Shown in pieces: positions 7,344-43,097 of a stretch of DNA of 64,000 bases. Both the position numbers and the translations under genes were made by a program. Numbering within the stretch: the stretch's first letter is position 1; each line of letters begins with the position of its first letter. This stretch comes from a virus. Under the pieces are notes generated by a model. It was not told where the DNA came from. It searched no databases and worked only from the letters and a program-made list of their open reading frames with translations. The stretch lies in UHGV virus genome UHGV-2113617; one strand, given 5' to 3'.

Positions 7344-8762
7344 TTATGGATAGGTATAGATGATACCAGTTTCTAAAGCAGTTTTATGAATGATGTATCC
7401 ATTACGCGATTCTTGAACATCAACTTCTGGATAGTCTTTCATCATCTTCTGAAGAGTGTAACGATGCAGGTAGTATTTACTGTCTGGATCTTCAGTTTTC
7501 CAATCTTTACCTTCTTCAGTCATTTTTTGGATTTCATCCATAACCCACCAACCGCACCAGATATAAGCTGAGCTACGATGTGGAAGAGGATGAACATAAG
7601 GTAATTCACCTTCTGGTTCCGGAGCAACTTTATCAGTCACTTGAACTTGACCTGTGGCTTTAACTGTTTTACTATCATAGTCAGTTGCTGTAACGACAGC
7701 AGTAACTTCAATAGTTTGACTTCCAATAGATGAGGTATCAACAGTATATACGTTAGTTGACCCTTCTACAGGAGAAGAATCTTTCTTCCATGAGTAAGTA
7801 ATTTGTGCTGCTTCAGGTGCGCCAGTAACATTAGCAGTAAATGTAGCCGAAGCATCTTGCTGAACATTAATAGAAGGAGGAGTCAATGTAACCTGTGGAT
7901 TCATTGTCTTCTTATTAACCGTTAATGATACTTCATTAGAAGTAACTGTTTTTGCGTCGTAATCCGTTGCTGTTACTTGGGCTATACATTTAATTTTTTT
8001 AACTCCAGCCACAGTTGGAGTATAGTTAAATGTAGAGTTAGTTTCTCCACCAACTTGTGAATCATCTACATACCACTGATACGTAGCAGACGCTCCATCA
8101 GGTTGAGAAGCTAATGCAGCAGTAAATTGAACCGGGGTTCCAATTACTCCAGCAGCAGGACTAGCAGGAGTTACTGCCAAGGTAGTTGTCTGCGTCTTTT
8201 TATTAACAGTCAGTGACACTTCATTAGAAGTAACTTCCTTTGTATCATAATCTGCCGCGGTTACTTGAGCTACACACTTAATTGTTTTAACTCCGCTTGT
8301 AGTAGGAGTATAATTGAATGTAGCAGAAGTTGCTTCGCTCACAGGAGAACCGTCAACGTACCATTGATACGTAGCAGATGCGCCCGATGGCTGTGAAGCT
8401 AAGGCAGCAGTAAATTCAACAGCTGTTCCGATTACTCCTTCTGGAGGACTATTAGGAGTTACAGCTAAGGTAGTTGTCTGTGTCTTATTTTGAACTGTGA
8501 TAGTTGTACTAATTTCAGCTGTTTCAGCATCAGTATCTGGAACTGGGTTTGTTGCAACTACTTTAATAGTTTTTAAACCGGCAGGTCCTTTTAGTACATA
8601 ACTAAAAGTTGCAGATGTTTCTTCCTGTGGAACATCATCTACAGTCCAAGCATATGTAATAGGTCCATCTCCAGTTTGACCACTGGGTGTAGCAGTAAAC
8701 TGCTGAGTCTGATCTATAACTCCAGTAGGTGTTTTAGGAGTTATATCAACTGTAAAAGCCAT
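7344..8762 (-). CDS. hoc: highly immunogenic outer capsid protein Hoc, extended form with an extra Ig-like domain
   Basis: 472 aa against 376 aa recalled for T4 Hoc; conserved C-terminal capsid-binding region (PEPEGELPYVHPLPHRSSAYIWCGWW); internal near-identical 96 aa tandem repeat. Confidence 0.85.
   Translation of the reverse strand: MAFTVDITPKTPTGVIDQTQQFTATPSGQTGDGPITYAWTVDDVPQEETSATFSYVLKGPAGLKTIKVVATNPVPDTDAETAEISTTITVQNKTQTTTLAVTPNSPPEGVIGTAVEFTAALASQPSGASATYQWYVDGSPVSEATSATFNYTPTTSGVKTIKCVAQVTAADYDTKEVTSNEVSLTVNKKTQTTTLAVTPASPAAGVIGTPVQFTAALASQPDGASATYQWYVDDSQVGGETNSTFNYTPTVAGVKKIKCIAQVTATDYDAKTVTSNEVSLTVNKKTMNPQVTLTPPSINVQQDASATFTANVTGAPEAAQITYSWKKDSSPVEGSTNVYTVDTSSIGSQTIEVTAVVTATDYDSKTVKATGQVQVTDKVAPEPEGELPYVHPLPHRSSAYIWCGWWVMDEIQKMTEEGKDWKTEDPDSKYYLHRYTLQKMMKDYPEVDVQESRNGYIIHKTALETGIIYTYP
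7911..8486 (-). repeat. tandem direct repeat of about 288 bp x2 inside hoc, encoding duplicated Ig-like domain
   Basis: Protein residues about 93-187 and 189-284 are near-identical (KTQTTTLAVTP...SNEVSLTVNK); DNA copies visibly similar. Confidence 0.8.
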
Positions 8763-8771
8763 AAGTTATCC

Positions 8772-9452
8772 TTATTTTAATGTTACGAAAGAAGAATTGC
8801 GTGTTTCACGAATTAGAACTGATCCGTCACGATTAATGTAGTAAATTAAGCTAAATAAAGTTTGATGCGCCGACGCGTGTTCAAAACTAGTTGGGTGAGA
8901 TTTCCAATCCGGAGTTTCAGCAATCCACTGGTAAATCCACCAAGGAACCGTGCAAAATCCTGGATTTTTTCCAATCAGCTGAAGATTCGGACTAAAGTTT
9001 TCCGGAAGAGTAAATACAGACGGCTTTTCAGATTCAATAATCTCAGCTACAGCCTGTTCGAATTTTTCTTCAACAAAAGGAGTATCTTCAATCAAAACAT
9101 TGGTATTTTCAGGAATTTTATCCGTTTCTACTACTTCAATTTTAATGTCAGATTTAACCGGAGAATCAATCAGAAGTGCTGCTTCTGGATTGACTTCTTC
9201 ATCGTCATATTTTAACCCTTCTGCGGCATCAGCAGCATCAATTAAGTCTTTAATAGATAACCCATCAGTCTCTGGCATAGGTTCACTAGCGAGCTTCTGG
9301 AGGGCTTCTTCAATATCAATAACGATATTATCAAAAGATTTATTCTTTTTGACCTTTATACCAATCTGTTCAGCATATTCAGCTAATTTAGCTTTAGCTT
9401 CTTTATTATCATCAAGAGCCTTCAGCTCTGCAATATAATCTTTATCTATCAT
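8772..9452 (-). CDS. inh: inhibitor of prohead protease (Inh)
   Basis: 226 aa, same length and position (between hoc and uvsW) as T4 inh. Confidence 0.65.
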   Translation of the reverse strand: MIDKDYIAELKALDDNKEAKAKLAEYAEQIGIKVKKNKSFDNIVIDIEEALQKLASEPMPETDGLSIKDLIDAADAAEGLKYDDEEVNPEAALLIDSPVKSDIKIEVVETDKIPENTNVLIEDTPFVEEKFEQAVAEIIESEKPSVFTLPENFSPNLQLIGKNPGFCTVPWWIYQWIAETPDWKSHPTSFEHASAHQTLFSLIYYINRDGSVLIRETRNSSFVTLK

Positions 9453-9465
9453 AATATTTCCTCAG

Positions 9466-9473
9466 TATAAATA
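9466..9473 (+). promoter_or_regulatory. late promoter (TATAAATA) upstream of uvsW
   Basis: Exact TATAAATA about 30 nt upstream of the uvsW ATG. Confidence 0.65.
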
Positions 9474-9502
9474 TAGATATATTTATTACATGGTATTTAG
9501 AC

Positions 9503-11014
9503 ATGACTGACATTAAAGTACATTTTTATGATTTTAGTCACGTGAGAATTGATTGTGAAGAAAGTACATTTCATGAACTCCGTGATTTCTTTAGCTTTGA
9601 AGCTGATGGGTATCGTTTTAATCCGAAGTACAAATATGGTCATTGGGATGGACGAATCCGTCTTTTAGATTATAATCGCCTTCTTCCATTCGGCTTAGTC
9701 GGGCAAATTAAAAAGTTCTGTGATAACTTTGGCTATAAAGCTTGGATTGACCCACAGATTAACGAAAAAGAAGAATTATCAAGAAAAGATTTTGATGAAT
9801 GGCTTTCTAAATTAGAAATCTATTCAGGAAATAAAAGAATTGAACCGCATTGGTATCAAAAAGATGCAGTGTTCGAAGGATTAGTTAATCGTCGTAGAAT
9901 TCTTAATCTTCCAACATCCGCAGGTAAATCCTTAATTCAAGCTTTGCTTGCGCGTTATTATTTGGAAAATTATGAAGGTAAAATTCTTATCATTGTTCCA
10001 ACAACTGCTTTAACAACTCAGATGGCTGATGACTTCGTTGACTATCGTTTATTCAGTCATGCAATGATAAAGAAAATCGGCGGCGGAGCATCAAAAGATG
10101 ATAAATATAAAAATGATGCACCGGTAATTGTTGGTACATGGCAAACTGTAGTAAAACAACCAAAAGAATGGTTCTCACAGTTTGGAATGATGATGAATGA
10201 TGAATGCCATCTTGCCACAGGAAAAAGTATTTCATCTATCATATCAGGTTTAAATAACTGCATGTTCAAATTTGGTCTATCGGGTTCATTACGTGATGGC
10301 AAAGCTAATATCATGCAGTATGTTGGAATGTTTGGTGAAATATTTAAGCCAGTAACGACTTCTAAATTAATGGAAGATGGACAAGTAACTGAGTTAAAAA
10401 TTAATAGTATTTTTCTTCGTTATCCTGATGAGTTCACTACTAAATTAAAGGGAAAAACTTACCAAGAAGAAATAAAAATTATTACTGGGCTCAGTAAAAG
10501 AAATAAATGGATCGCTAAATTAGCTATTAAACTTGCGCAAAAAGATGAAAACGCTTTTGTCATGTTTAAACATGTATCACATGGTAAAGCTATTTTCGAT
10601 TTAATTAAAAATGAATACGATAAAGTTTATTACGTATCAGGGGAAGTTGATACCGAAACTCGAAACATAATGAAAACCTTAGCTGAAAACGGTAAAGGAA
10701 TAATTATAGTAGCTAGTTATGGTGTATTTTCTACTGGTATTTCAGTTAAAAATCTGCATCACGTTGTTTTAGCACACGGTGTTAAATCTAAAATTATTGT
10801 ATTGCAAACAATAGGTCGTGTATTACGTAAGCATGGTTCTAAAACAATCGCAACGGTCTGGGACCTCATAGATGACGCGGGCGTAGTTTCTAAATCAAAA
10901 ACATCTTCTAAAAAATACTCGCATTTAAACTATCTTTTAAAACATGGACTTGATCGTATTCAGCGTTATGCTGATGAGAAGTTTAATTATGTGATGAAAG
11001 AGGTTAAACTTTGA
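9503..11014 (+). CDS. uvsW: UvsW DNA/RNA helicase
   Basis: 503 aa; DExH box (MMMNDECH); length and position match T4 UvsW. Confidence 0.9.
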   Translation: MTDIKVHFYDFSHVRIDCEESTFHELRDFFSFEADGYRFNPKYKYGHWDGRIRLLDYNRLLPFGLVGQIKKFCDNFGYKAWIDPQINEKEELSRKDFDEWLSKLEIYSGNKRIEPHWYQKDAVFEGLVNRRRILNLPTSAGKSLIQALLARYYLENYEGKILIIVPTTALTTQMADDFVDYRLFSHAMIKKIGGGASKDDKYKNDAPVIVGTWQTVVKQPKEWFSQFGMMMNDECHLATGKSISSIISGLNNCMFKFGLSGSLRDGKANIMQYVGMFGEIFKPVTTSKLMEDGQVTELKINSIFLRYPDEFTTKLKGKTYQEEIKIITGLSKRNKWIAKLAIKLAQKDENAFVMFKHVSHGKAIFDLIKNEYDKVYYVSGEVDTETRNIMKTLAENGKGIIIVASYGVFSTGISVKNLHHVVLAHGVKSKIIVLQTIGRVLRKHGSKTIATVWDLIDDAGVVSKSKTSSKKYSHLNYLLKHGLDRIQRYADEKFNYVMKEVKL

Positions 11015-11703
11015 ATTATAAATTAATATACGATAATTTAATTAATAGAGCCCAGAATCGGGCTCGCCTTAATGGATACACTGAAACTCATCATATAATT
11101 CCTAGATGTATGGGCGGTACAGATGATAAGTGTAATTTGGTAGAACTAACAGCTGAAGAGCATTTTATAGCTCATAAACTTTTAGCTAAAATTCATCCAA
11201 ACCATTACGGTATAATTAAAGCCGTTATATGTATGGGGATGAATTCAAAGACTCATGAAAGACACGTTAATAAATCTTACGCCTGGGAACGTCGTAAAAT
11301 GGCAGAACTTCAATCAGGTGAAGGTAATCCATTTTACGGAAAACACCATACGGAAGAACATAAACAATATATGTCAAAACTCATGAAAAATCGTCCAATT
11401 ACATGGGGAAGTAAAATTAGTAAAACTAAAAGAATGAACCCAACAAAATGGACTGAAGAAGCTAAAAGATTGCATTCTATCAATCAATCAGGTAAAAATA
11501 ATGGCATGTATGGAAGGAAACATTCCGCTAAATCTATTCAGAAAATTAAAGATAATATGCCAGATAATTCAGGAGCTAATAACCCAGCTGCTAAACCTAT
11601 AGAAGTAAATGGTGTTAAGTATAAATGTATGAAAGACGCTTCTAAAGCTACTGGATTATCAATGTACAAACTAAGAATACTTAGAAAAACAGTTAATTTA
11701 TAA
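11011..11703 (+). CDS. free-standing HNH homing endonuclease with NUMOD-like repeats
   Basis: 230 aa; HNH core ETHHIIPRCMGGTDDKCNLVELTAEEH; probable TTG start with SD AAGAGG 7 nt upstream, overlapping the uvsW stop; paralog of ORF 39023..39733. Confidence 0.8.
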   Translation: MNYKLIYDNLINRAQNRARLNGYTETHHIIPRCMGGTDDKCNLVELTAEEHFIAHKLLAKIHPNHYGIIKAVICMGMNSKTHERHVNKSYAWERRKMAELQSGEGNPFYGKHHTEEHKQYMSKLMKNRPITWGSKISKTKRMNPTKWTEEAKRLHSINQSGKNNGMYGRKHSAKSIQKIKDNMPDNSGANNPAAKPIEVNGVKYKCMKDASKATGLSMYKLRILRKTVNL

Positions 11704-11716
11704 GGGCTTCGGCCCT

Positions 11717-11959
11717 TTGGAGAAAAAGATGTTACTAGAATTTAAACAATTTCTTTATGAAGCTTCTATTGATGAATTTATGGGTAAAATTGCCTCTTGC
11801 CAAACATTAGAAGGTCTAGAAGAACTTGAAGCTTATTATAAGAAAAGAGTTAAAGAAACTGAATTAAAAGATACTGATGACATCTCAGTTAGAGATGCTT
11901 TGGCAGGAAAAAGAGCTGAATTAGAAGATTCAGACGATGAAGTAGAAGAAAGCTTTTAA
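11717..11959 (+). CDS. hypothetical acidic protein (uvsW.1-like position)
   Basis: 80 aa ORF directly after the HNH gene. Confidence 0.5.
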   Translation: MEKKMLLEFKQFLYEASIDEFMGKIASCQTLEGLEELEAYYKKRVKETELKDTDDISVRDALAGKRAELEDSDDEVEESF

Positions 11960-11964
11960 ATTAA

Positions 11965-11995
11965 AAAAGGCCCAACCAAAAAGGAAGGGCCAAAA
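11965..11995 (-). terminator. weak hairpin plus T-run on minus strand downstream of the uvsY operon
   Basis: GGCCC...GGGCC stem with long loop followed by TTTTTTAATTT on minus strand. Confidence 0.3.
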
Positions 11996-12014
11996 CTATA
12001 GACTAAAGGTCACA

Positions 12015-12182
12015 CTATAGCAAAAGTTGTGTTTCATTTAATTGTTCTTCAGAACTTTCTGAAACTGGTAGTTCTTTAATGTAATTATAGCAAGGCCCAG
12101 GATGTACAGGACCTTTGTCTGTTTCAACAACCAATGCAGAATCGATTGGAGTTTTACAGACAACACAAATCTTATCTGACAT
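12015..12182 (-). CDS. small Cys-containing protein (possible zinc ribbon), not in ORF track (<60 aa)
   Basis: 55 aa MSDKICVVCKTPIDSALVVETDKGPVHPGPCYNY...; strong SD GAGGAG 7 nt upstream of ATG. Confidence 0.45.
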   Translation of the reverse strand: MSDKICVVCKTPIDSALVVETDKGPVHPGPCYNYIKELPVSESSEEQLNETQLLL

Positions 12183-12210
12183 GATTGTCTCCTCTAAATT
12201 ATATATCTAT

Positions 12211-12435
12211 TTATATATCTCTCATATGCATATCAATGCCCATATCTTTAGAATAAAAATATTCATCAAGATATCCGGCAAATTTTCCTTTAATATAAAG
12301 TACATCTTCACCGCATGGGTGGTCGGCCAGGATACGAATATCCTGACGCTTGAGATTATACTTTTTCATTAAGAATTGAATTTCCGTTTCGAATTCTTCT
12401 TCATAATTAAAAGCATCGTCAATGCTATATTTCAT
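12211..12435 (-). CDS. hypothetical protein downstream of uvsY
   Basis: 74 aa ORF, start overlaps uvsY stop. Confidence 0.55.
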   Translation of the reverse strand: MKYSIDDAFNYEEEFETEIQFLMKKYNLKRQDIRILADHPCGEDVLYIKGKFAGYLDEYFYSKDMGIDMHMRDI

Positions 12436-36813: not shown

Positions 36814-37992
36814 TTAAAAATATTTTTTAAAACTCATCATAACTTTATCATCAACATCATTATCAATCTGTGCTACAAGGTAAGATGACAGTTCTACTTC
36901 TTGCGGCGCGGATTGAACATTATCAGAATTAAGGTATTCACGAATCCAAGGATATGGATGTTTAACCGGAGCATCGGTAATTGGGCATGGAAGACCGCAC
37001 TGTTTCATACGAGATACAGTTAAGTAATCAATAAAGCTCCACATGCTATTTGTATTTAATCCAGGAACATCGCCATCTTTAAATAAATGAACTGCCCAGT
37101 CTTTTTCTTGACGGTTAACTTCCATGAAAATATCAACTGCTTCTTGTTCACACTCTTGGGCAATTTTACCCCATTCATCACCATCAGTACCGGATTGAAG
37201 CTGACGAATAATATATTGGGTGCCTTTAAGGTGGAGCTGCTCATCACGAGCAATGAACTTCATAATCTTGGCATTACCTTCCATGATTTCCATATTCTTG
37301 TGGAAGTTAAAGGTACATGCAAAAGATACATAAAAACGAATAGCTTCTAAGGCATTAATAACGTGCAAACAGAGGTAAAGAGATTTCATTAGCTCACGCT
37401 TCCAATATGTCTCATGCTCAATAGCATCTTCAATAACGTCTTCGTCTGCATTAATTTCTTTTTGGTATTCGATATCAGCTTTAGCGTTTTCCCAATAACG
37501 GGTTTTAGTCAGAACATCATCATAATAGCGTCCAATGGATTCAGCACGTTTCATAATAGCTTCATCTAATACAATTTCATCAAATACCTTCGATGGATCA
37601 GTATAAAGATTTCGCATGATATGTGTATATGAACGGCTGTGAATAGTTTCACTAAAAGTCCACGTAGCAACCCATGTATCAAGGCTTGGGTCTGAAATTA
37701 ATGACATAAGTACAGCAGACGGCGCACGACCCTGAATGCTATCCAAAAGTGATTGATACTTCAGATTATTAGTAAAAATATTTTGCTGATACTGAGGAAG
37801 CTTATTAAACTGTGCAGCATCCATCATTAAGTTTACTTCTTCAGGACGCCAGAAAAATGATAAGGACTTCTCTGTAAGTTCTTCAAATACTCGATGCCGT
37901 TGAATATCATAACGTGCAATACCAAGACCTGAACCAAAAAACATAGGTTCTTTTAAAACATCAACTGGATTTGTATTAAAAACTGTGCTCAT
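36814..37992 (-). CDS. nrdB: ribonucleotide reductase small subunit, uninterrupted (no intron)
   Basis: 392 aa continuous ORF, class I RNR beta with di-iron ligand-like motifs; T4 NrdB recalled as 388 aa. Confidence 0.9.
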   Translation of the reverse strand: MSTVFNTNPVDVLKEPMFFGSGLGIARYDIQRHRVFEELTEKSLSFFWRPEEVNLMMDAAQFNKLPQYQQNIFTNNLKYQSLLDSIQGRAPSAVLMSLISDPSLDTWVATWTFSETIHSRSYTHIMRNLYTDPSKVFDEIVLDEAIMKRAESIGRYYDDVLTKTRYWENAKADIEYQKEINADEDVIEDAIEHETYWKRELMKSLYLCLHVINALEAIRFYVSFACTFNFHKNMEIMEGNAKIMKFIARDEQLHLKGTQYIIRQLQSGTDGDEWGKIAQECEQEAVDIFMEVNRQEKDWAVHLFKDGDVPGLNTNSMWSFIDYLTVSRMKQCGLPCPITDAPVKHPYPWIREYLNSDNVQSAPQEVELSSYLVAQIDNDVDDKVMMSFKKYF

Positions 37993-38043
37993 AAATTTTC
38001 CGCTTAGTTAATAGTTAGTGACTCGTCCGTGAGTCAAATTATA

Positions 38044-39033
38044 TCATAATTTACAGGATGAACAATCTTCAGCTTTTGGAGTTTCTATTTCATAATCATC
38101 AGTACCAGAACCATCGCGGGTATTATGATAATAGAAATTTTTTCCGCCAAAATACCAAAAATACAAAAGGTCATCAATCATTACAGACATTGGAACCTTT
38201 CCTTTTGGAAAAATCTGCGGGTCATAATATGTATTCGCTGAAGCTGATTGACATACCCATTTAAGCATAATAGCTACCTGCGTAAGATAAGGTTTATTAC
38301 CTTTCTTAGCTAATTTCCATGTATAATCATAGAGGTCTATGTTATGTTCAATATTGGGCACGACTTGATTAAAGGAACCCTCTTTTGATTCTTTAACCGA
38401 GACTGGTCCACGTGGAGGCTCGATACCGTTTGTACTGTTAGAAACTTGGGAAGATGACTCACATGGCATAAGTGCTGATAATGTGCTATTACGGATGCCA
38501 AAGAGCTTAAGGTCTTCCCGCAGCGACGACCAGTCACAAACGTATTTTGGAGCTGCGATTTGGTCAATCTTTTTATTGTACCAGTCGATAGGTAATTCGC
38601 CTCGAGACCAACGAGTGTCTGAATAATATTCGCAAGGTCCTTTTTCTTTGGCGAGTTTAATGGATGCTTTAATGAGTCCATACTGTAATCTCTCAAATAG
38701 TTCATGTGTTAAATCGTTAGCATCTTCATAAGAAGCAAAGTTACTTGCCAGCCAAGCTGCATAGTTAGTAACACCTACGCCAAGGTTTCGACGCTTTTTA
38801 GCTTTTTCTGCTTCAGGAACTGGATATCCTTGGTAATCCAACAGATTATCAAGAGCACGAACTTGAACTTCTGCCAATTCATTAATTTTATCTTGGTCTT
38901 GCCAATCGAAGTTATCCAACACAAATGCGCTAAGGGTACAAAGCCCCACTTCTCCCTTGTTTTCAATAACTTCTATTGTAGTATACTCATCATCTTCGTA
39001 AAATTCATCTACAAATTCATAATCAATATTCAT
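38044..39033 (-). CDS. nrdA: ribonucleotide reductase large subunit, C-terminal fragment
   Basis: 329 aa; from residue ~24 (KGEVGLCTLSAF...) matches the class Ia NrdA region after the NLCxEI active site; own ATG, 23 aa leader not matching NrdA. Confidence 0.85.
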   Translation of the reverse strand: MNIDYEFVDEFYEDDEYTTIEVIENKGEVGLCTLSAFVLDNFDWQDQDKINELAEVQVRALDNLLDYQGYPVPEAEKAKKRRNLGVGVTNYAAWLASNFASYEDANDLTHELFERLQYGLIKASIKLAKEKGPCEYYSDTRWSRGELPIDWYNKKIDQIAAPKYVCDWSSLREDLKLFGIRNSTLSALMPCESSSQVSNSTNGIEPPRGPVSVKESKEGSFNQVVPNIEHNIDLYDYTWKLAKKGNKPYLTQVAIMLKWVCQSASANTYYDPQIFPKGKVPMSVMIDDLLYFWYFGGKNFYYHNTRDGSGTDDYEIETPKAEDCSSCKL

Positions 39034-39733
39034 TTAATTCTTCTACCTTTTTTCTAGTAATTCCTAAAGCTTTAGATGCTCGATGTATTGATTGATATTC
39101 TATACCGTTTATTTTTACAGCAATTAAGTTATGGGGTTTTAATCCCTTTGGATGAGGTTTACTGACGAAAACTAAATTATCAAGCTCTGAAATCTTATCC
39201 AATTTCTTACACTTAAATCCTTTGTGATGCGCCCGTTTACCTTTACAAACGGCTGACATCGCAGATGGATTTAAATTATGCTCTTTACAAAATTCGTTAA
39301 GACCTCGATGAATTTCCTCATGACCATCTGGAAATGTAAACACCCAAGACGTTTGAAGTCGAGATTTAACTTCTGGAGACATAGGAATACCTTTGTTCCA
39401 GGCCGGTTTGCCTTTATTATTTTCAGATACAGAAATAGCCAATTTTCTTCTAAGCCATCCATGACGTTTATTAGTGTTCTTTCGTTCAATATTATCTTCA
39501 GAATAAACACACATCATATTAGCGGCAAATATCAATTTATGATTATCTGGATATATCTTTACTAATAATTGATGAGCTATGTAATGCTCTTCTGGTGTCA
39601 AATCTACCAGGTTTTCTTTTGTATCAGAACCACCAATACACAGAGGTATAATATGATGTGATTCGGTATAGCAATCTAATTTTCTGTTCTTAGCTTTAGA
39701 AATAAGGTTATTGTAAATTTTAGAATAATCCAT
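39023..39733 (-). CDS. HNH homing endonuclease inserted within nrdA
   Basis: 236 aa; HNH core ESHHIIPLCIGGSDTKENLVDLTPEEH; own SD AAGAGGAAAAG; N-terminus paralogous to ORF 11011..11703. Confidence 0.8.
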   Translation of the reverse strand: MDYSKIYNNLISKAKNRKLDCYTESHHIIPLCIGGSDTKENLVDLTPEEHYIAHQLLVKIYPDNHKLIFAANMMCVYSEDNIERKNTNKRHGWLRRKLAISVSENNKGKPAWNKGIPMSPEVKSRLQTSWVFTFPDGHEEIHRGLNEFCKEHNLNPSAMSAVCKGKRAHHKGFKCKKLDKISELDNLVFVSKPHPKGLKPHNLIAVKINGIEYQSIHRASKALGITRKKVEELNEY

Positions 39734-39778
39734 AACTTTTCCTCTTGTTATGGATTATTTATTAACGGTCTGTGTACT

Positions 39779-41212
39779 TTATTTGCTTTGAATTATACCG
39801 CCAGGATTAGCTTCATAAAACTTAGCTACATCCGACTTCTTAATTTTAATTAAACGGGTTTGTTGACTATTCACATCATTTGTTGGAATAGCAATTTCAC
39901 AACACAAGTTACTCTGACGAATAGGTGCCTTTTCACGAATAAACGGAGTATAATTATTCGTATTATCAATGAACTGCACATAAATCCTTGCTGTTCCTGA
40001 TCGTTCAGTCATGAGTAATTCAAATAGTTCACGGGCTTTAATACGCTTTTTGCGAATATTAGGGTCTTTTTCTGCTGCTTCGTATAATTCGCGGAAACGG
40101 TCTTGGTCTTTAAAATAAGAATAATAAAGCTCGCCACCCATTTCATGCGGACTAAACAAAGTAATGTAATCGTTCTTTCCGAATCGTTCCATCATTAGGT
40201 CATTCAGCTGAACACCATAATCCATATGACGGATACGGTTTTCTTCTACACCTTTGTTATTTTTCAAAACGAGAAGATTTTCAACTTCCAAATGCCAAAT
40301 AGGATAATAAGCAGTAGCAGCGCCGCCACGAATTCCGCCCTGTGAACATGATTTAACAGCAGTCTGAAAATGTTTCCAAAAAGGAATAACGCCAGTATGA
40401 CGTACTTCACCTGTGCCAATCTTAGAACCTTCGGCACGAATCATACCAACGTTAATACCGATTCCGGCTCGTTTAGAAATATACTCAACAATTGAAGCAG
40501 AAGCTTTATTGATAGACTTCAGCGAATCACCTGCTTCAATAACAACGCATGAACTAAACTGTCGAGTTGGAGTACGACATCCAGCCATAATAGGAGTTGG
40601 CAATGAAATCTGTCGAGTAGATACTGCTTCATAAAAACGAATAACATGTTTTAATCTGTCAACAGGTTCATCTTGATGCAATGCCATTCCAATAGTCATA
40701 AATGCAAACTGTGGAGTTTCATAAATTTGACCAGTGGTTTTATCTTTAACGAGATATTTTTCTTTTAATTGCATCGCCCCGGAATAAGTAAATTCCATAT
40801 CCCGCTCGTGCTTAATTTTTGATTCTAAAAATGTAATTTCTTCTGCAGAATATTTTGACAACAATTCAGGGTCGTATTTACCTTCATTTACACAGTAAGA
40901 AATATGGTCAATAAATGAACGTGGTTCATATTGCCCGTAAACATGCTTACGAAGAGCAAACATTAAACAGCGTGCAGCTACGTATTGATAATCAGGCTCT
41001 TCAACTGAAATAGAATTCGCAGCAGCCTTAATTACAATGGTTTGAATGTCATCAGTGGTCATTCCATCGCGGAGATATGATTTAATATTTTCATATAATT
41101 CATAAGGATCTACAGATGTTCCTTCAGCTGCCCAAGATAAAACTTTAATAATTTTTTGTGGGTCAAAGCTCTGAGAAACACCACTACTTTTGATAACATT
41201 AATTAATTGCAT
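39779..41212 (-). CDS. nrdA: ribonucleotide reductase large subunit, N-terminal fragment
   Basis: 477 aa; ATP-cone N-terminus, ends just after SNLCCEIAIPTNDVN, then 29 non-homologous codons and a stop. Confidence 0.85.
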   Translation of the reverse strand: MQLINVIKSSGVSQSFDPQKIIKVLSWAAEGTSVDPYELYENIKSYLRDGMTTDDIQTIVIKAAANSISVEEPDYQYVAARCLMFALRKHVYGQYEPRSFIDHISYCVNEGKYDPELLSKYSAEEITFLESKIKHERDMEFTYSGAMQLKEKYLVKDKTTGQIYETPQFAFMTIGMALHQDEPVDRLKHVIRFYEAVSTRQISLPTPIMAGCRTPTRQFSSCVVIEAGDSLKSINKASASIVEYISKRAGIGINVGMIRAEGSKIGTGEVRHTGVIPFWKHFQTAVKSCSQGGIRGGAATAYYPIWHLEVENLLVLKNNKGVEENRIRHMDYGVQLNDLMMERFGKNDYITLFSPHEMGGELYYSYFKDQDRFRELYEAAEKDPNIRKKRIKARELFELLMTERSGTARIYVQFIDNTNNYTPFIREKAPIRQSNLCCEIAIPTNDVNSQQTRLIKIKKSDVAKFYEANPGGIIQSK

Positions 41213-41769: not shown

Positions 41770-42081
41770 TTACACCGCCATTTTTCCTTTCAAGACACCA
41801 TGGGACTGATAATCTTTAAGAACGAAATCTTTAGGCCTGAGTTTAAGAACATATTCCAATTGTTCTTTAGTAGAAAGATAGCGGAATTTATAAGGCAATC
41901 CGCCTATTATCAGTTCACAAAGCTCTTTAGGTTCACGACGCAAAATTTCTTTACATTGTTCTACGTGATTCATATAGATATGAGTATTACCACCAGAAAA
42001 TATCAAATCTCCTGGAATAAGATTACACATCTTAGCTACAATATGAACTAACGCAGCGTACGAGGCAATGTTGAATGGAAG
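41770..42081 (-). CDS. td: thymidylate synthase exon 2
   Basis: Begins CTTCCATTCAAC (LPFNIA...) directly after the intron terminal G; 103 codons to stop. Confidence 0.9.
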   Translation of the reverse strand, partial: LPFNIASYAALVHIVAKMCNLIPGDLIFSGGNTHIYMNHVEQCKEILRREPKELCELIIGGLPYKFRYLSTKEQLEYVLKLRPKDFVLKDYQSHGVLKGKMAV

Positions 42082-43097
42082 CATTATGTTCAGATAAGGT
42101 CGTTAATCTTATCCCGGAATTATATCCAGCTGCATGTCACCATGCAGAGCAGACTATATCTCCAACTTGTTAAAGCAAGTTGTCTATCGTTTCGAGTCAC
42201 TTGACCCTACTCCCTAAAGGGATAGTCGTTAGGCATTTATGTAGAACCAATTCCACTTATCAGATTTTACACGGTAAGTAACTAATCCGGATGAAATTTC
42301 AAAATGTCTAGCTGCGTCAGCTGCACATTCAAAAATAACCCCATCACATGAAATCTTTTTAATATTACTAGGCTTTTTACCTTTCATCTTTTCTGATATT
42401 TTAGATTTAGTTTTGTCTGAATGCTTATGATTAAAGAATGAATTATTTTCGCCTGAACGATTTCTGCATTTACTACAAGTATAAGCAGAAGTTTGTATAC
42501 GAACCCCACATTCACAAAACTTATGGGTTTCTGGATTCCAACGCCCATTTTTGCTTCCGGGTTTACCGTAAAGAGCTTTCCGACCATCAGAGCCAAGCTT
42601 AAGCATCTTAGCTTTAACAGTTTCAGAGCGTTTCTTAATAATTTCTTCTTTTAATGGATGTACAGAATATGTATCACCAAACGTTGCATCAGCAATATTG
42701 TATCCATTAATTTTAGAATTAAGCTCTTTAATCCAAAAATTTTCTCGTTCAATAATCAAATCTTTCTCATATGGAATTTCTTCCAAAATAGAGCATTCAA
42801 ACACATTACCGTGTTTATTAAAAGACCTTTGAAGTTTTATAGAAGAATGGCATCCTTTTTCTAAGTCTTTAAAATGCCTCTTCCATCTCTTTTCAAAATC
42901 TTTAGCACTTCCTACATATACTTTATTGTTTAAAGTATTTTTAATCTGATAAATTCCACTTTTCATAAATACCTCTTTAAATATAGAAGTATTTATTAAA
43001 GGGTAGTCCTACAATTTAGCACGGGATTGTCTACTAGAGAGGTTCCCCGTTTAGATAGATTACAAGTATAAGTCACCTTATACTCAGGCCTCAATTA
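42082..43097 (-). mobile_element. group I self-splicing intron in td (1016 nt) carrying I-TevI
   Basis: Starts TAATTGAGGCCTGAGTATAAGGTGACTTATACTTG after exon-1 ...TTGGGT and ends ...AACATAATG; matches my memory of the T4 td intron ends and length. Confidence 0.85.
42229..42966 (-). CDS. I-TevI: intron-encoded GIY-YIG homing endonuclease I-TevI
   Basis: 245 aa; N-terminal MKSGIYQIKNTLNNKVYVGSAKDFEKRWKRH GIY-YIG domain, C-terminal zinc finger and DNA-binding region. Confidence 0.9.
   Translation of the reverse strand: MKSGIYQIKNTLNNKVYVGSAKDFEKRWKRHFKDLEKGCHSSIKLQRSFNKHGNVFECSILEEIPYEKDLIIERENFWIKELNSKINGYNIADATFGDTYSVHPLKEEIIKKRSETVKAKMLKLGSDGRKALYGKPGSKNGRWNPETHKFCECGVRIQTSAYTCSKCRNRSGENNSFFNHKHSDKTKSKISEKMKGKKPSNIKKISCDGVIFECAADAARHFEISSGLVTYRVKSDKWNWFYINA

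Follow-up and report, generated by a model that had tools for sequence, protein, structure and literature searches.

The 64,000-nucleotide (nt) stretch of virus genome UHGV-2113617 analyzed here (the window), which is T4-like (Tequatrovirus), carries an open reading frame (ORF) with an HNH motif behind the helicase gene uvsW, at a junction that is uninterrupted in T4. The locus raises the question of what kind of gene occupies this junction and how it came to be there. As judged from its sequence, the ORF is very probably a free-standing homing-endonuclease gene of the T4 Mob type, with an N-terminal HNH domain, NUMOD3 repeats and a helix-turn-helix module, that colonized the 3′ end of uvsW. 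A free-standing HNH homing endonuclease was the core of the initial annotation of the window, and this reading is supported by homology to the Mob proteins, by the lack of an intron, and by the comparison of empty with occupied sites. Free-standing homing endonucleases are classically associated with the T-even phages, and the conceptual gain is small, since T6 and about 48 other records already have the gene annotated, mostly as a homing endonuclease. The new detail is the exact insert with its substitute UvsW tail; this tail-swap architecture, a sharply bounded linked tract, and a landing site shared by several genera make the locus a tidy experimental system rather than a surprise.

The cassette at the 3′ end of uvsW

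The features of the locus are listed below, with the coordinates of the window.

9503..11014, plus strand: uvsW helicase gene, 503 amino acids (aa); Pfam UvsW_N (3.9e-43), ResIII, DEAD and Helicase_C.
11000..11688, plus strand: inserted cassette, 689 nt exactly by comparison with empty sites (ATGAAA/ACAGTTAATTTATAA, the slash marking the insertion point).
11000..11014, plus strand: substitute UvsW C-terminus, GAGGTTAAACTTTGA, E-V-K-L-stop; cassette-derived, containing the GAGG and the overlapping TTG of the HNH ORF.
11011..11703, plus strand: putative HNH homing-endonuclease ORF, 230 aa, TTG start; from the ORF listing and from domain and family matches.
11689..11703, plus strand: resident uvsW tail, ACAGTTAATTTATAA, T-V-N-L-stop; now the last codons and stop of the HNH ORF.
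11704..11715, plus strand: UUCG-loop hairpin, GGGCTTCGGCCC, 6-bp stem, between the stop and the uvsW.1 ribosome-binding site; native and outside the insert.
11729..11959, plus strand: uvsW.1, 76 aa, a separate conserved gene; Pfam UvsW-1, E 1.5e-30.

Nine Tequatrovirus loci with the gene (the window included) were compared with nine that lack it. The distance between flanking anchors is 780 nt in 9/9 carriers and 91 nt in 9/9 non-carriers, and the boundary of the cassette is ambiguous by a few A's. The insertion point lies inside the last five codons of uvsW. The empty site reads ...TAC GTA ATG AAA / ACA GTT AAT TTA TAA GGGCTTCGGCCC, and the occupied junction in the window reads ...ATG AAA GAG GTT AAA CTT TGA ATT AT.... 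UvsW accordingly ends in ...YVMKTVNL-stop natively and in ...YVMKEVKL-stop in carriers. The displaced ACAGTTAATTTATAA is identical to the uvsW 3′ end in all non-carrier Tequatroviruses. Because the HNH ORF ends in ...LRKTVNL-stop, it is an in-frame fusion to this resident tail and borrows the uvsW stop codon. The length of UvsW is unchanged, since the left end of the cassette re-creates its C-terminus and the right end fuses to the resident tail. An insertion into coding sequence is in this way made nearly harmless, with a replacement C-terminus that doubles as the ribosome-binding site of the invader. The gene had been described as sitting after uvsW, but the insertion lies within the last five uvsW codons and comes with a replacement tail.

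At empty sites uvsW has its own stop, and after a spacer of 25 nt uvsW.1 follows with a ribosome-binding site that belongs to it. The hairpin at 11704..11715 is present and identical in carriers and non-carriers, and neither it nor the uvsW.1 ribosome-binding site nor uvsW.1 itself is altered by the insertion. Because the downstream gene is uvsW.1, the HNH gene lies between uvsW and uvsW.1 and not directly in the uvsW-uvsY spacer. In phage IME339 (locus L011, 2463..2753) uvsW.1 measures 291 nt, which exceeds the 231 nt of other Tequatroviruses by 60 nt.

The TTG start at 11011-11013 overlaps the uvsW stop TGA at 11012-11014 (cTTTGA), and a Shine-Dalgarno GAGG lies at 11000-11003 with a spacing of 7 nt; the new uvsW codons GAG GTT AAA CTT TGA hold both elements. 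The TTG is kept in 9/9 Tequatrovirus copies examined, in the Jiaodavirus and Morganella orthologs the homologous codon is ATG, and the protein aligns with T4 MobB, MobC, MobD and MobE starting at residue 1. The 230-aa HNH/NUMOD ORF of the initial annotation, its TTG overlapping the uvsW stop, and its good Shine-Dalgarno sequence are all confirmed by these data together with the ORF listing and the NUMOD3 match, and use of the TTG as the start is supported. An internal start at M34, the next in-frame ATG, was rejected because it would delete the invariant H27/H28 and because the orthologs begin at the homologous first codon. The W143 record (locus L018, 2608..3201) is annotated from this internal ATG, which removes the catalytic histidines.

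The reading frame is intact in 9/9 Tequatrovirus loci examined. Pairwise, the nine copies show up to 19 synonymous and 2-5 non-synonymous differences (pN/pS 0.03-0.10). Three regions of the protein can be recognized.

11089..11175, plus strand: HNH catalytic motif, H27/H28 ... N42 ... H51 ... H55 (ETHHIIPRCMGGTDDKCNLVELTAEEHFIAH).
11290..11376, plus strand: NUMOD3 motif, residues 94-122; Pfam PF07460.
11479..11658, plus strand: C-terminal predicted DNA-binding region, residues 157-216, resembling the I-TevI minor-groove helix and helix-turn-helix.

In an alignment of 42 homologs H28, N42, H51 and H55 are invariant, and a group II intron maturase has an HNH that aligns with this motif. Pfam NUMOD3 (PF07460) is matched in two stretches (E 7.7e-14), the second of which probably lies near residues 157-182, and the protein belongs to PHROG 655, 'homing endonuclease' (E 1.6e-61). 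An AlphaFold (AF2) model built from the same alignment has a mean predicted local distance difference test score (pLDDT) of 87.4, with a strand-strand-helix at residues 25-61 (pLDDT >90) and a strand-strand-helix-helix unit at the C-terminus. In Foldseek searches the HNH part of the model matches Cas8-HNH (probability 0.94), and the C-terminal region matches 1i3j_A, the DNA-binding domain of I-TevI (probability 1.00, TM(target) 0.50). The same domain (PDB 1i3j) is found by phmmer with residues 157-216 (E 0.006), and the region shares 31% identity with the I-TevI encoded in the window (E about 1e-8). Over the HNH domain, BLASTP gives 52% identity to T4 MobE (106 columns, E 7e-32), 44% to MobB (2e-26), 59% to MobD (1e-25) and 45% to MobC (1e-19), and 67% to MobA over 21 aa. 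The protein thus has the sequence-level traits of the T4 Mob type, namely an HNH motif, homology to the Mob proteins, and a distinct putative DNA-binding region at the C-terminus.

A megablast search with the ORF returned 49 phage records with the full gene at 96.4-99.9% identity, including T6, PST, ACG-C40, HY03, EC121 and W143; the hosts of the carriers are E. coli, Yersinia, Shigella and Salmonella. The uvsW/uvsW.1 junction is present in about 500 Tequatrovirus records, so that roughly 10% carry the gene and ~90% lack it (both counts include RefSeq/GenBank duplicates). In T4, T2, RB32, RB51 and others the junction is uninterrupted. Comparison of the uvsW-uvsY side with T4 and its relatives therefore bears out the expectation that T4 has no endonuclease at this position, and the gene is missing from T4 and from most relatives. 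Its presence or absence at one fixed site among close relatives, with the identical 689-nt insert at 9/9 loci, is of the kind expected for a mobile element, as first proposed, but the insertion is not lineage-specific: its distribution is patchy and includes T6 and other genera.

Most public records annotate the gene as 'homing endonuclease', and others as 'mobD', 'group I intron endonuclease' or 'hypothetical protein'. In PST (locus L017) it is named mobD and its flanks are called uvsW-A and uvsW-B; in Metamorpho (locus L028) it is labeled GIY-YIG, and uvsW and uvsW.1 are joined as one spliced coding sequence (CDS). The present analysis corrects the labels 'mobD', 'uvsW-A/B', 'group I intron endonuclease' and 'GIY-YIG', as well as the truncated start in W143. 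No paper describing an endonuclease at the uvsW/uvsW.1 site was found in a literature search whose coverage is incomplete, so that this absence is not proof.

The adjoining uvsW tract and the junction in other genera

The 3′ end of uvsW next to the cassette differs between carriers and non-carriers.

10879..10993, plus strand: endonuclease-linked diverged tract at the uvsW 3′ end; candidate target and/or immunity region, and candidate co-conversion tract.

The 18 loci were aligned with the insert removed, over 1490 nt upstream and 1000 nt downstream. The fixed differences that separate carriers from non-carriers (29/29) all fall at -120..-6 from the insertion point, with none in the other 1370 nt upstream or in the 1000 nt downstream. 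Divergence between the groups reaches 34% at -109..-50, compared with 0.6-2% within groups. Over the last 126 nt of uvsW, carriers and non-carriers are 69% identical, and over the same tract T2 and a Klebsiella Jiaodavirus are 76% identical. The changes are mostly silent and leave a short difference at the protein level, VVSKSKTSSKKYSH in carriers versus VKPKSANTKKKYVH in non-carriers. The tract is 59-72% identical to every other genus sampled, carrier or not, and no donor was identified among them.

Two uvsW backgrounds can be distinguished further upstream. Carriers and non-carriers occur on each, and the carrier sequence is therefore a haplotype block placed on different backgrounds. LH2 (locus L020, 1990..2200), which lacks the HNH gene, is a mosaic that is of carrier type at -125..-72 and of non-carrier type at -70..0, and the same holds for OES_C-1/2/3; such a mosaic is what a short conversion tract not reaching the gene, or an ordinary crossover, would leave. 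A precise-loss allele, with a carrier-type proximal flank and an empty site, was not found with a chimeric query, which gave about 440 full-length matches, all at 90-95% identity. The haplotype block on different backgrounds, the LH2 mosaic, and the lack of a recombinant between carrier flank and empty site are suggestive of preferential inheritance with co-conversion.

The other end of uvsW provides a comparison. The window (9453..9502) has no segE between inh and uvsW, and segE is present in T4 (locus L001, 2058..2675), T6, PST and EC121. Fixed differences between segE carriers and non-carriers within uvsW are confined to the first ~139 nt next to segE and are mostly silent. SegE is listed as an active endonuclease with uvsW as its target gene (PMC2988022). 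The footprint of the HNH gene is thus the one that a proven free-standing endonuclease leaves at the opposite end of uvsW. Since segE and the HNH gene are found in all four combinations, they are independent elements. The linked tract of fixed differences at -120..-6, mirrored by this control, is suggestive of site-specific cutting of the endonuclease-less allele. The target site may span the insertion point, or it may lie in the -125..-72 stretch.

A search of protein databases returned a graded series of full-length orthologs at 55-70% identity. Each of the four that were checked is located between uvsW and uvsW.1; they come from Jiaodavirus pzk-kv6-1, Dhakavirus PSD2002, Morganella phage Rgz1 and a metagenomic contig. 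The ortholog of the Klebsiella Jiaodavirus group, which 13 records have at this junction, is 69% identical. It overlaps both of its neighbors, the TGA of uvsW with its ATG and the ATG of uvsW.1 with its stop, and the empty site in this group reads AAT CTA TGA TT. In Dhakavirus PSD2002, UvsW ends in KEVQI-stop with a TTG overlap, and the endonuclease ends in ...MKQVDL-stop. The native UvsW tail of the non-carrier Dhakavirus QL01 is KQVDL-stop, which confirms that the PSD2002 endonuclease runs into the resident tail. The left-end arrangement AAAGAGGTnnnnnTTTGAA is found in Dhakavirus PSD2002, Bp7 and an uncultured relative, and the architecture of the ribosome-binding site and start is conserved in three genera.

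At the same junction, Dhakavirus Bp7 (locus L035, 524..1306) carries an HNH gene for a different Mob-like protein of 260 aa. It shares its left end with the window gene (AAA GAG GTG CAG CTT TGA ATT ATC AG, with the substitute tail KEVQL-stop, GAGG and TTG), and the C-terminal region of its product is MobD-like. Together with the orthologs at the same position, this gene shows that Mob-type genes have landed at the uvsW/uvsW.1 junction more than once. AAATTTAAYTACGTAATGAAA is common to the non-carrier alleles of Tequatrovirus, Jiaodavirus and Dhakavirus, and every carrier allele in all groups has TAT GTN in place of TAC GTA (-9 and -6).

A more specific proposal, which is tentative and may well prove wrong, is that the junction acts as a conserved landing pad and that what lands there is a portable left-end module, consisting of the tail K-E-V-x-(L/I)-stop with its ribosome-binding site and TTG followed by the HNH domain. 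This module would be combined with at least two C-terminal DNA-binding regions (the 230-aa NUMOD3/helix-turn-helix type and the 260-aa MobD-like type of Bp7). The endonuclease would recognize a site that spans its own insertion point, with AAATTTAAYTACGTAATGAAA as the core, and immunity would be conferred by the insertion and the two silent changes from TAC GTA to TAT GTN. To our knowledge, other free-standing T4 endonucleases cut hundreds of base pairs away.

Expression, proposed mechanism and competing explanations

One element that could drive expression of the gene lies upstream of uvsW.

9466..9473, plus strand: late-promoter consensus, TATAAATA, an exact match to the T4 consensus 30 nt upstream of uvsW.

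TATAAATA is the only promoter-like element upstream of the uvsW-HNH-uvsW.1 string, and a scan of 9300..12300 revealed no sigma-70-like site or terminator above chance. Cassettes that lack a promoter and have an overlapping stop and start are typical of the free-standing endonucleases of T4, and this arrangement, described for mobE and several other T4 endonuclease genes, has been read as a means to keep expression low (PMC2988022). A hairpin is predicted over the ribosome-binding site and TTG of the HNH gene, with a 10-11-bp stem (AAGUUUAAUU / GGUUAAACUU) and -9.4 kcal/mol (about 1.3% of shuffles); in a longer context its z-score is -1.36. As a conserved regulator it was rejected, and it is not relied upon here, because it is predicted in the Tequatrovirus copy only, the orthologs of Dhakavirus, Jiaodavirus, Morganella and the metagenomic contig having a weak stem or none.

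These features suggest the following course of events. The HNH gene would be transcribed together with uvsW from the late promoter at 9466 and translated, coupled to uvsW termination, at a level expected to be low given the weakness of TTG as a start. When a cell is also infected by a phage that lacks the gene, the enzyme would bind the uninterrupted uvsW 3′ end and nick or cut it. Through recombination-dependent repair off the carrier genome, the recipient would then acquire the cassette along with the neighboring ~120 nt of uvsW. Immunity of the carrier allele would come from the interruption of its site and/or from the clustered silent substitutions, the most consistent of which change TAC GTA to TAT GTN at -9 and -6.

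A number of observations weigh against reading the gene as an active homing endonuclease. The match of the protein to Pfam HNH is weak (E 0.0079, under the gathering score), the copy in BF15 (MW822007) has a frameshifting 4-nt deletion, and no cleavage, nicking or inheritance experiment with this HNH protein was found in the searchable literature. Linkage of the tract to the gene is not strict, its distal half being present also in the four non-carriers LH2 and OES_C-1/2/3. The tract could simply have hitch-hiked along from the original donor instead of determining immunity, and carrier haplotypes of different genera may share ancestry and are therefore not independent replicates. Finally, the identities of the endonuclease and of UvsW fall in parallel between genera (69/77, 59/72 and 55/64%), which fits long residence at the site as well as frequent transfer. 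Such co-residence would suit a gene that descends from a homing endonuclease but is no longer mobile and is kept for another role, for example to exclude the markers of phages infecting the same cell, or to act in repair or regulation together with UvsW/UvsW.1; its patchiness would then reflect ancient acquisition, loss and ordinary recombination. Strong purifying selection shows that some function is kept and not that this function is homing, and several T4 Mob genes are without a demonstrated target (PMC2988022). This explanation is nevertheless unlikely, for the carrier block lies on different uvsW backgrounds and assorts independently of segE, and the copies are nearly identical across phages from all four host genera. 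Simple loss should leave some precise-loss alleles, and about 440 empty sites contain none. Marker exclusion, moreover, itself follows from endonuclease cutting and so overlaps with homing.

The frameshift in BF15, the weak TTG start, and the defective mobA and I-TevIII of T4 could also point to an inert or decaying passenger, moved by general recombination and without nuclease activity of its own. That the ORF is such a passenger is very improbable, given the low pN/pS with as many as 19 silent changes tolerated, the invariant catalytic residues, the frame kept open at every locus examined, and a ribosome-binding site and start whose architecture has been conserved in three genera. An intron-encoded endonuclease within a single uvsW gene is suggested by the annotations of G8, G28, PST and Metamorpho ('group I intron endonuclease', uvsW-A/uvsW-B, and a joined helicase CDS) and by the old T4 record, in which uvsW and uvsW.1 are fused into one 587-aa CDS. 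This reading is practically untenable. No Rfam family, group I and group II introns included, matches 10300..12400 at E ≤ 1; at the empty site uvsW has its own stop and uvsW.1 starts 25 nt further on with its own ribosome-binding site; and the sequence of T4 strain 147 shows the uvsW stop. In T4 relatives uvsW.1 is a distinct ORF, and the fused T4 record is recognized as the result of a sequencing error (PMC1524935, PMC6486255). The label of a group I intron-encoded gene was therefore rejected, there being no intron family at the locus and the flanks being two genes, and the same observations identify the HNH gene as free-standing.

Taken as a free-standing homing-endonuclease gene of the Mob type, the insertion offers a clean and testable case, with a defined 689-nt insert, empty site and linked uvsW tract, a predicted target core, and two substitutions predicted as candidates for immunity. 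The carriers, the non-carriers, the LH2 mosaic, and the orthologs of three other groups serve as natural controls. How nicking Mob enzymes drive gene conversion was described as an open question in a 2010 review. With two unrelated and independently assorting endonuclease genes at its ends, segE on the 5′ side and the HNH gene on the 3′ side, uvsW is a convenient locus for the study of Mob-driven gene conversion.

Known relatives and the second HNH gene of the window

T4 MobE is a free-standing HNH endonuclease encoded between nrdA and nrdB that nicks nrdB and mobilizes, besides itself, the defunct I-TevIII intron. Over the HNH domain it is the T4 protein that best matches the uvsW-linked one; both genes are free-standing, lack a promoter and are co-oriented with an upstream gene of DNA metabolism, and in both the start overlaps the upstream stop (UAAUGA in mobE versus UUUGA in the window; PMC2988022). 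MobE differs in being 141 aa long, without the long NUMOD3/helix-turn-helix C-terminal part of the window protein, and in its target, which is nrdB rather than the predicted uvsW region. Only the window cassette replaces the last codons of the host gene and borrows its stop. SegE resembles the element in being a neighbor at the opposite end of uvsW, in the fixed and mostly silent differences confined to the adjoining ~140 nt, and in its patchy distribution. It is a GIY-YIG protein, however, encoded between inh and uvsW on the 5′ side, absent from the window, and it assorts independently of the HNH gene.

The likeness to I-TevI is limited to residues 157-216, which match its minor-groove helix and helix-turn-helix. 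The window protein has an HNH catalytic domain where I-TevI has a GIY-YIG one, it lacks a zinc-finger linker, and its gene does not reside in an intron. I-HmuI of Bacillus phage SPO1, an intron-encoded nicking HNH enzyme, follows the general plan predicted for the window protein, with an N-terminal HNH, extended helical DNA-binding modules and a terminal helix-turn-helix, but again the window gene is not intron-encoded, and neither sequence nor Foldseek searches recovered a match of the window HNH protein to I-HmuI.

A second HNH gene of the Mob family is present in the window, where it splits nrdA.

39023..39733, minus strand: second Mob-family HNH gene, 236 aa, splitting nrdA; PHROG 655.
39779..41212, minus strand: nrdA-a, 477 aa, matching T4 NrdA residues 1-449.
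38044..39033, minus strand: nrdA-b, 329 aa, matching T4 NrdA residues 452-754.

The break lies at T4 NrdA residues ~449/452, a few residues past the NLCCEI motif. NrdA-a and NrdA-b each have a new tail of ~27 residues, and the stop region of the HNH gene overlaps the start of nrdA-b. In Aeh1, as Friedrich and co-workers are said to have reported in 2007, a mobE insertion splits nrdA, and the split nrdA of the window (38044..41212, minus strand) resembles this case of genes in pieces. Like the uvsW insertion, the one in nrdA is by a member of the Mob/PHROG 655 family, lies in coding sequence, and creates new termini of the host protein. The consequences differ: NrdA is cut into pieces of 477 and 329 aa that must reassemble, whereas in UvsW two of the last four residues are changed (plus a few tract substitutions) and the length is the same.

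The assignment of both window HNH genes to one family, made in the initial annotation, agrees with their shared PHROG and with the match of the nrdA pieces to T4 NrdA; the strand of the second gene is corrected here to minus. The two had also been called paralogs with closely similar N-termini. BLASTP aligns them at 33% identity over 240 columns (E 7e-35), and the N-terminal ~60 residues are far more alike than the rest, but the two are no closer to each other than either is to T4 MobE, MobB or MobD (52%, 44% and 59% over the N-terminal domain for the uvsW-linked protein). Their C-terminal modules differ as well, being NUMOD3 and I-TevI-like in the uvsW-linked protein and a Pfam I-HmuI NUMOD-like domain in the nrdA-linked one. 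By sequence, they are two members of the Mob family and not a special pair.

Elsewhere in the window, nrdB (36814..38043, minus strand; 392 aa) is uninterrupted and thus has no I-TevIII intron, and since the gap from nrdB to nrdA-b is only 51 nt there is no mobE at the T4 position. The td gene is interrupted (41770..42966, minus strand) and carries an I-TevI gene (42229..42966, minus strand). The hoc gene (7344..8762, minus strand) encodes 472 aa, compared with 376 aa (1131 nt) in T4, and has an extra, internally repeated Ig-like segment; hoc of ime09 and of SholemSchwarzbard has the same length as that of the window.

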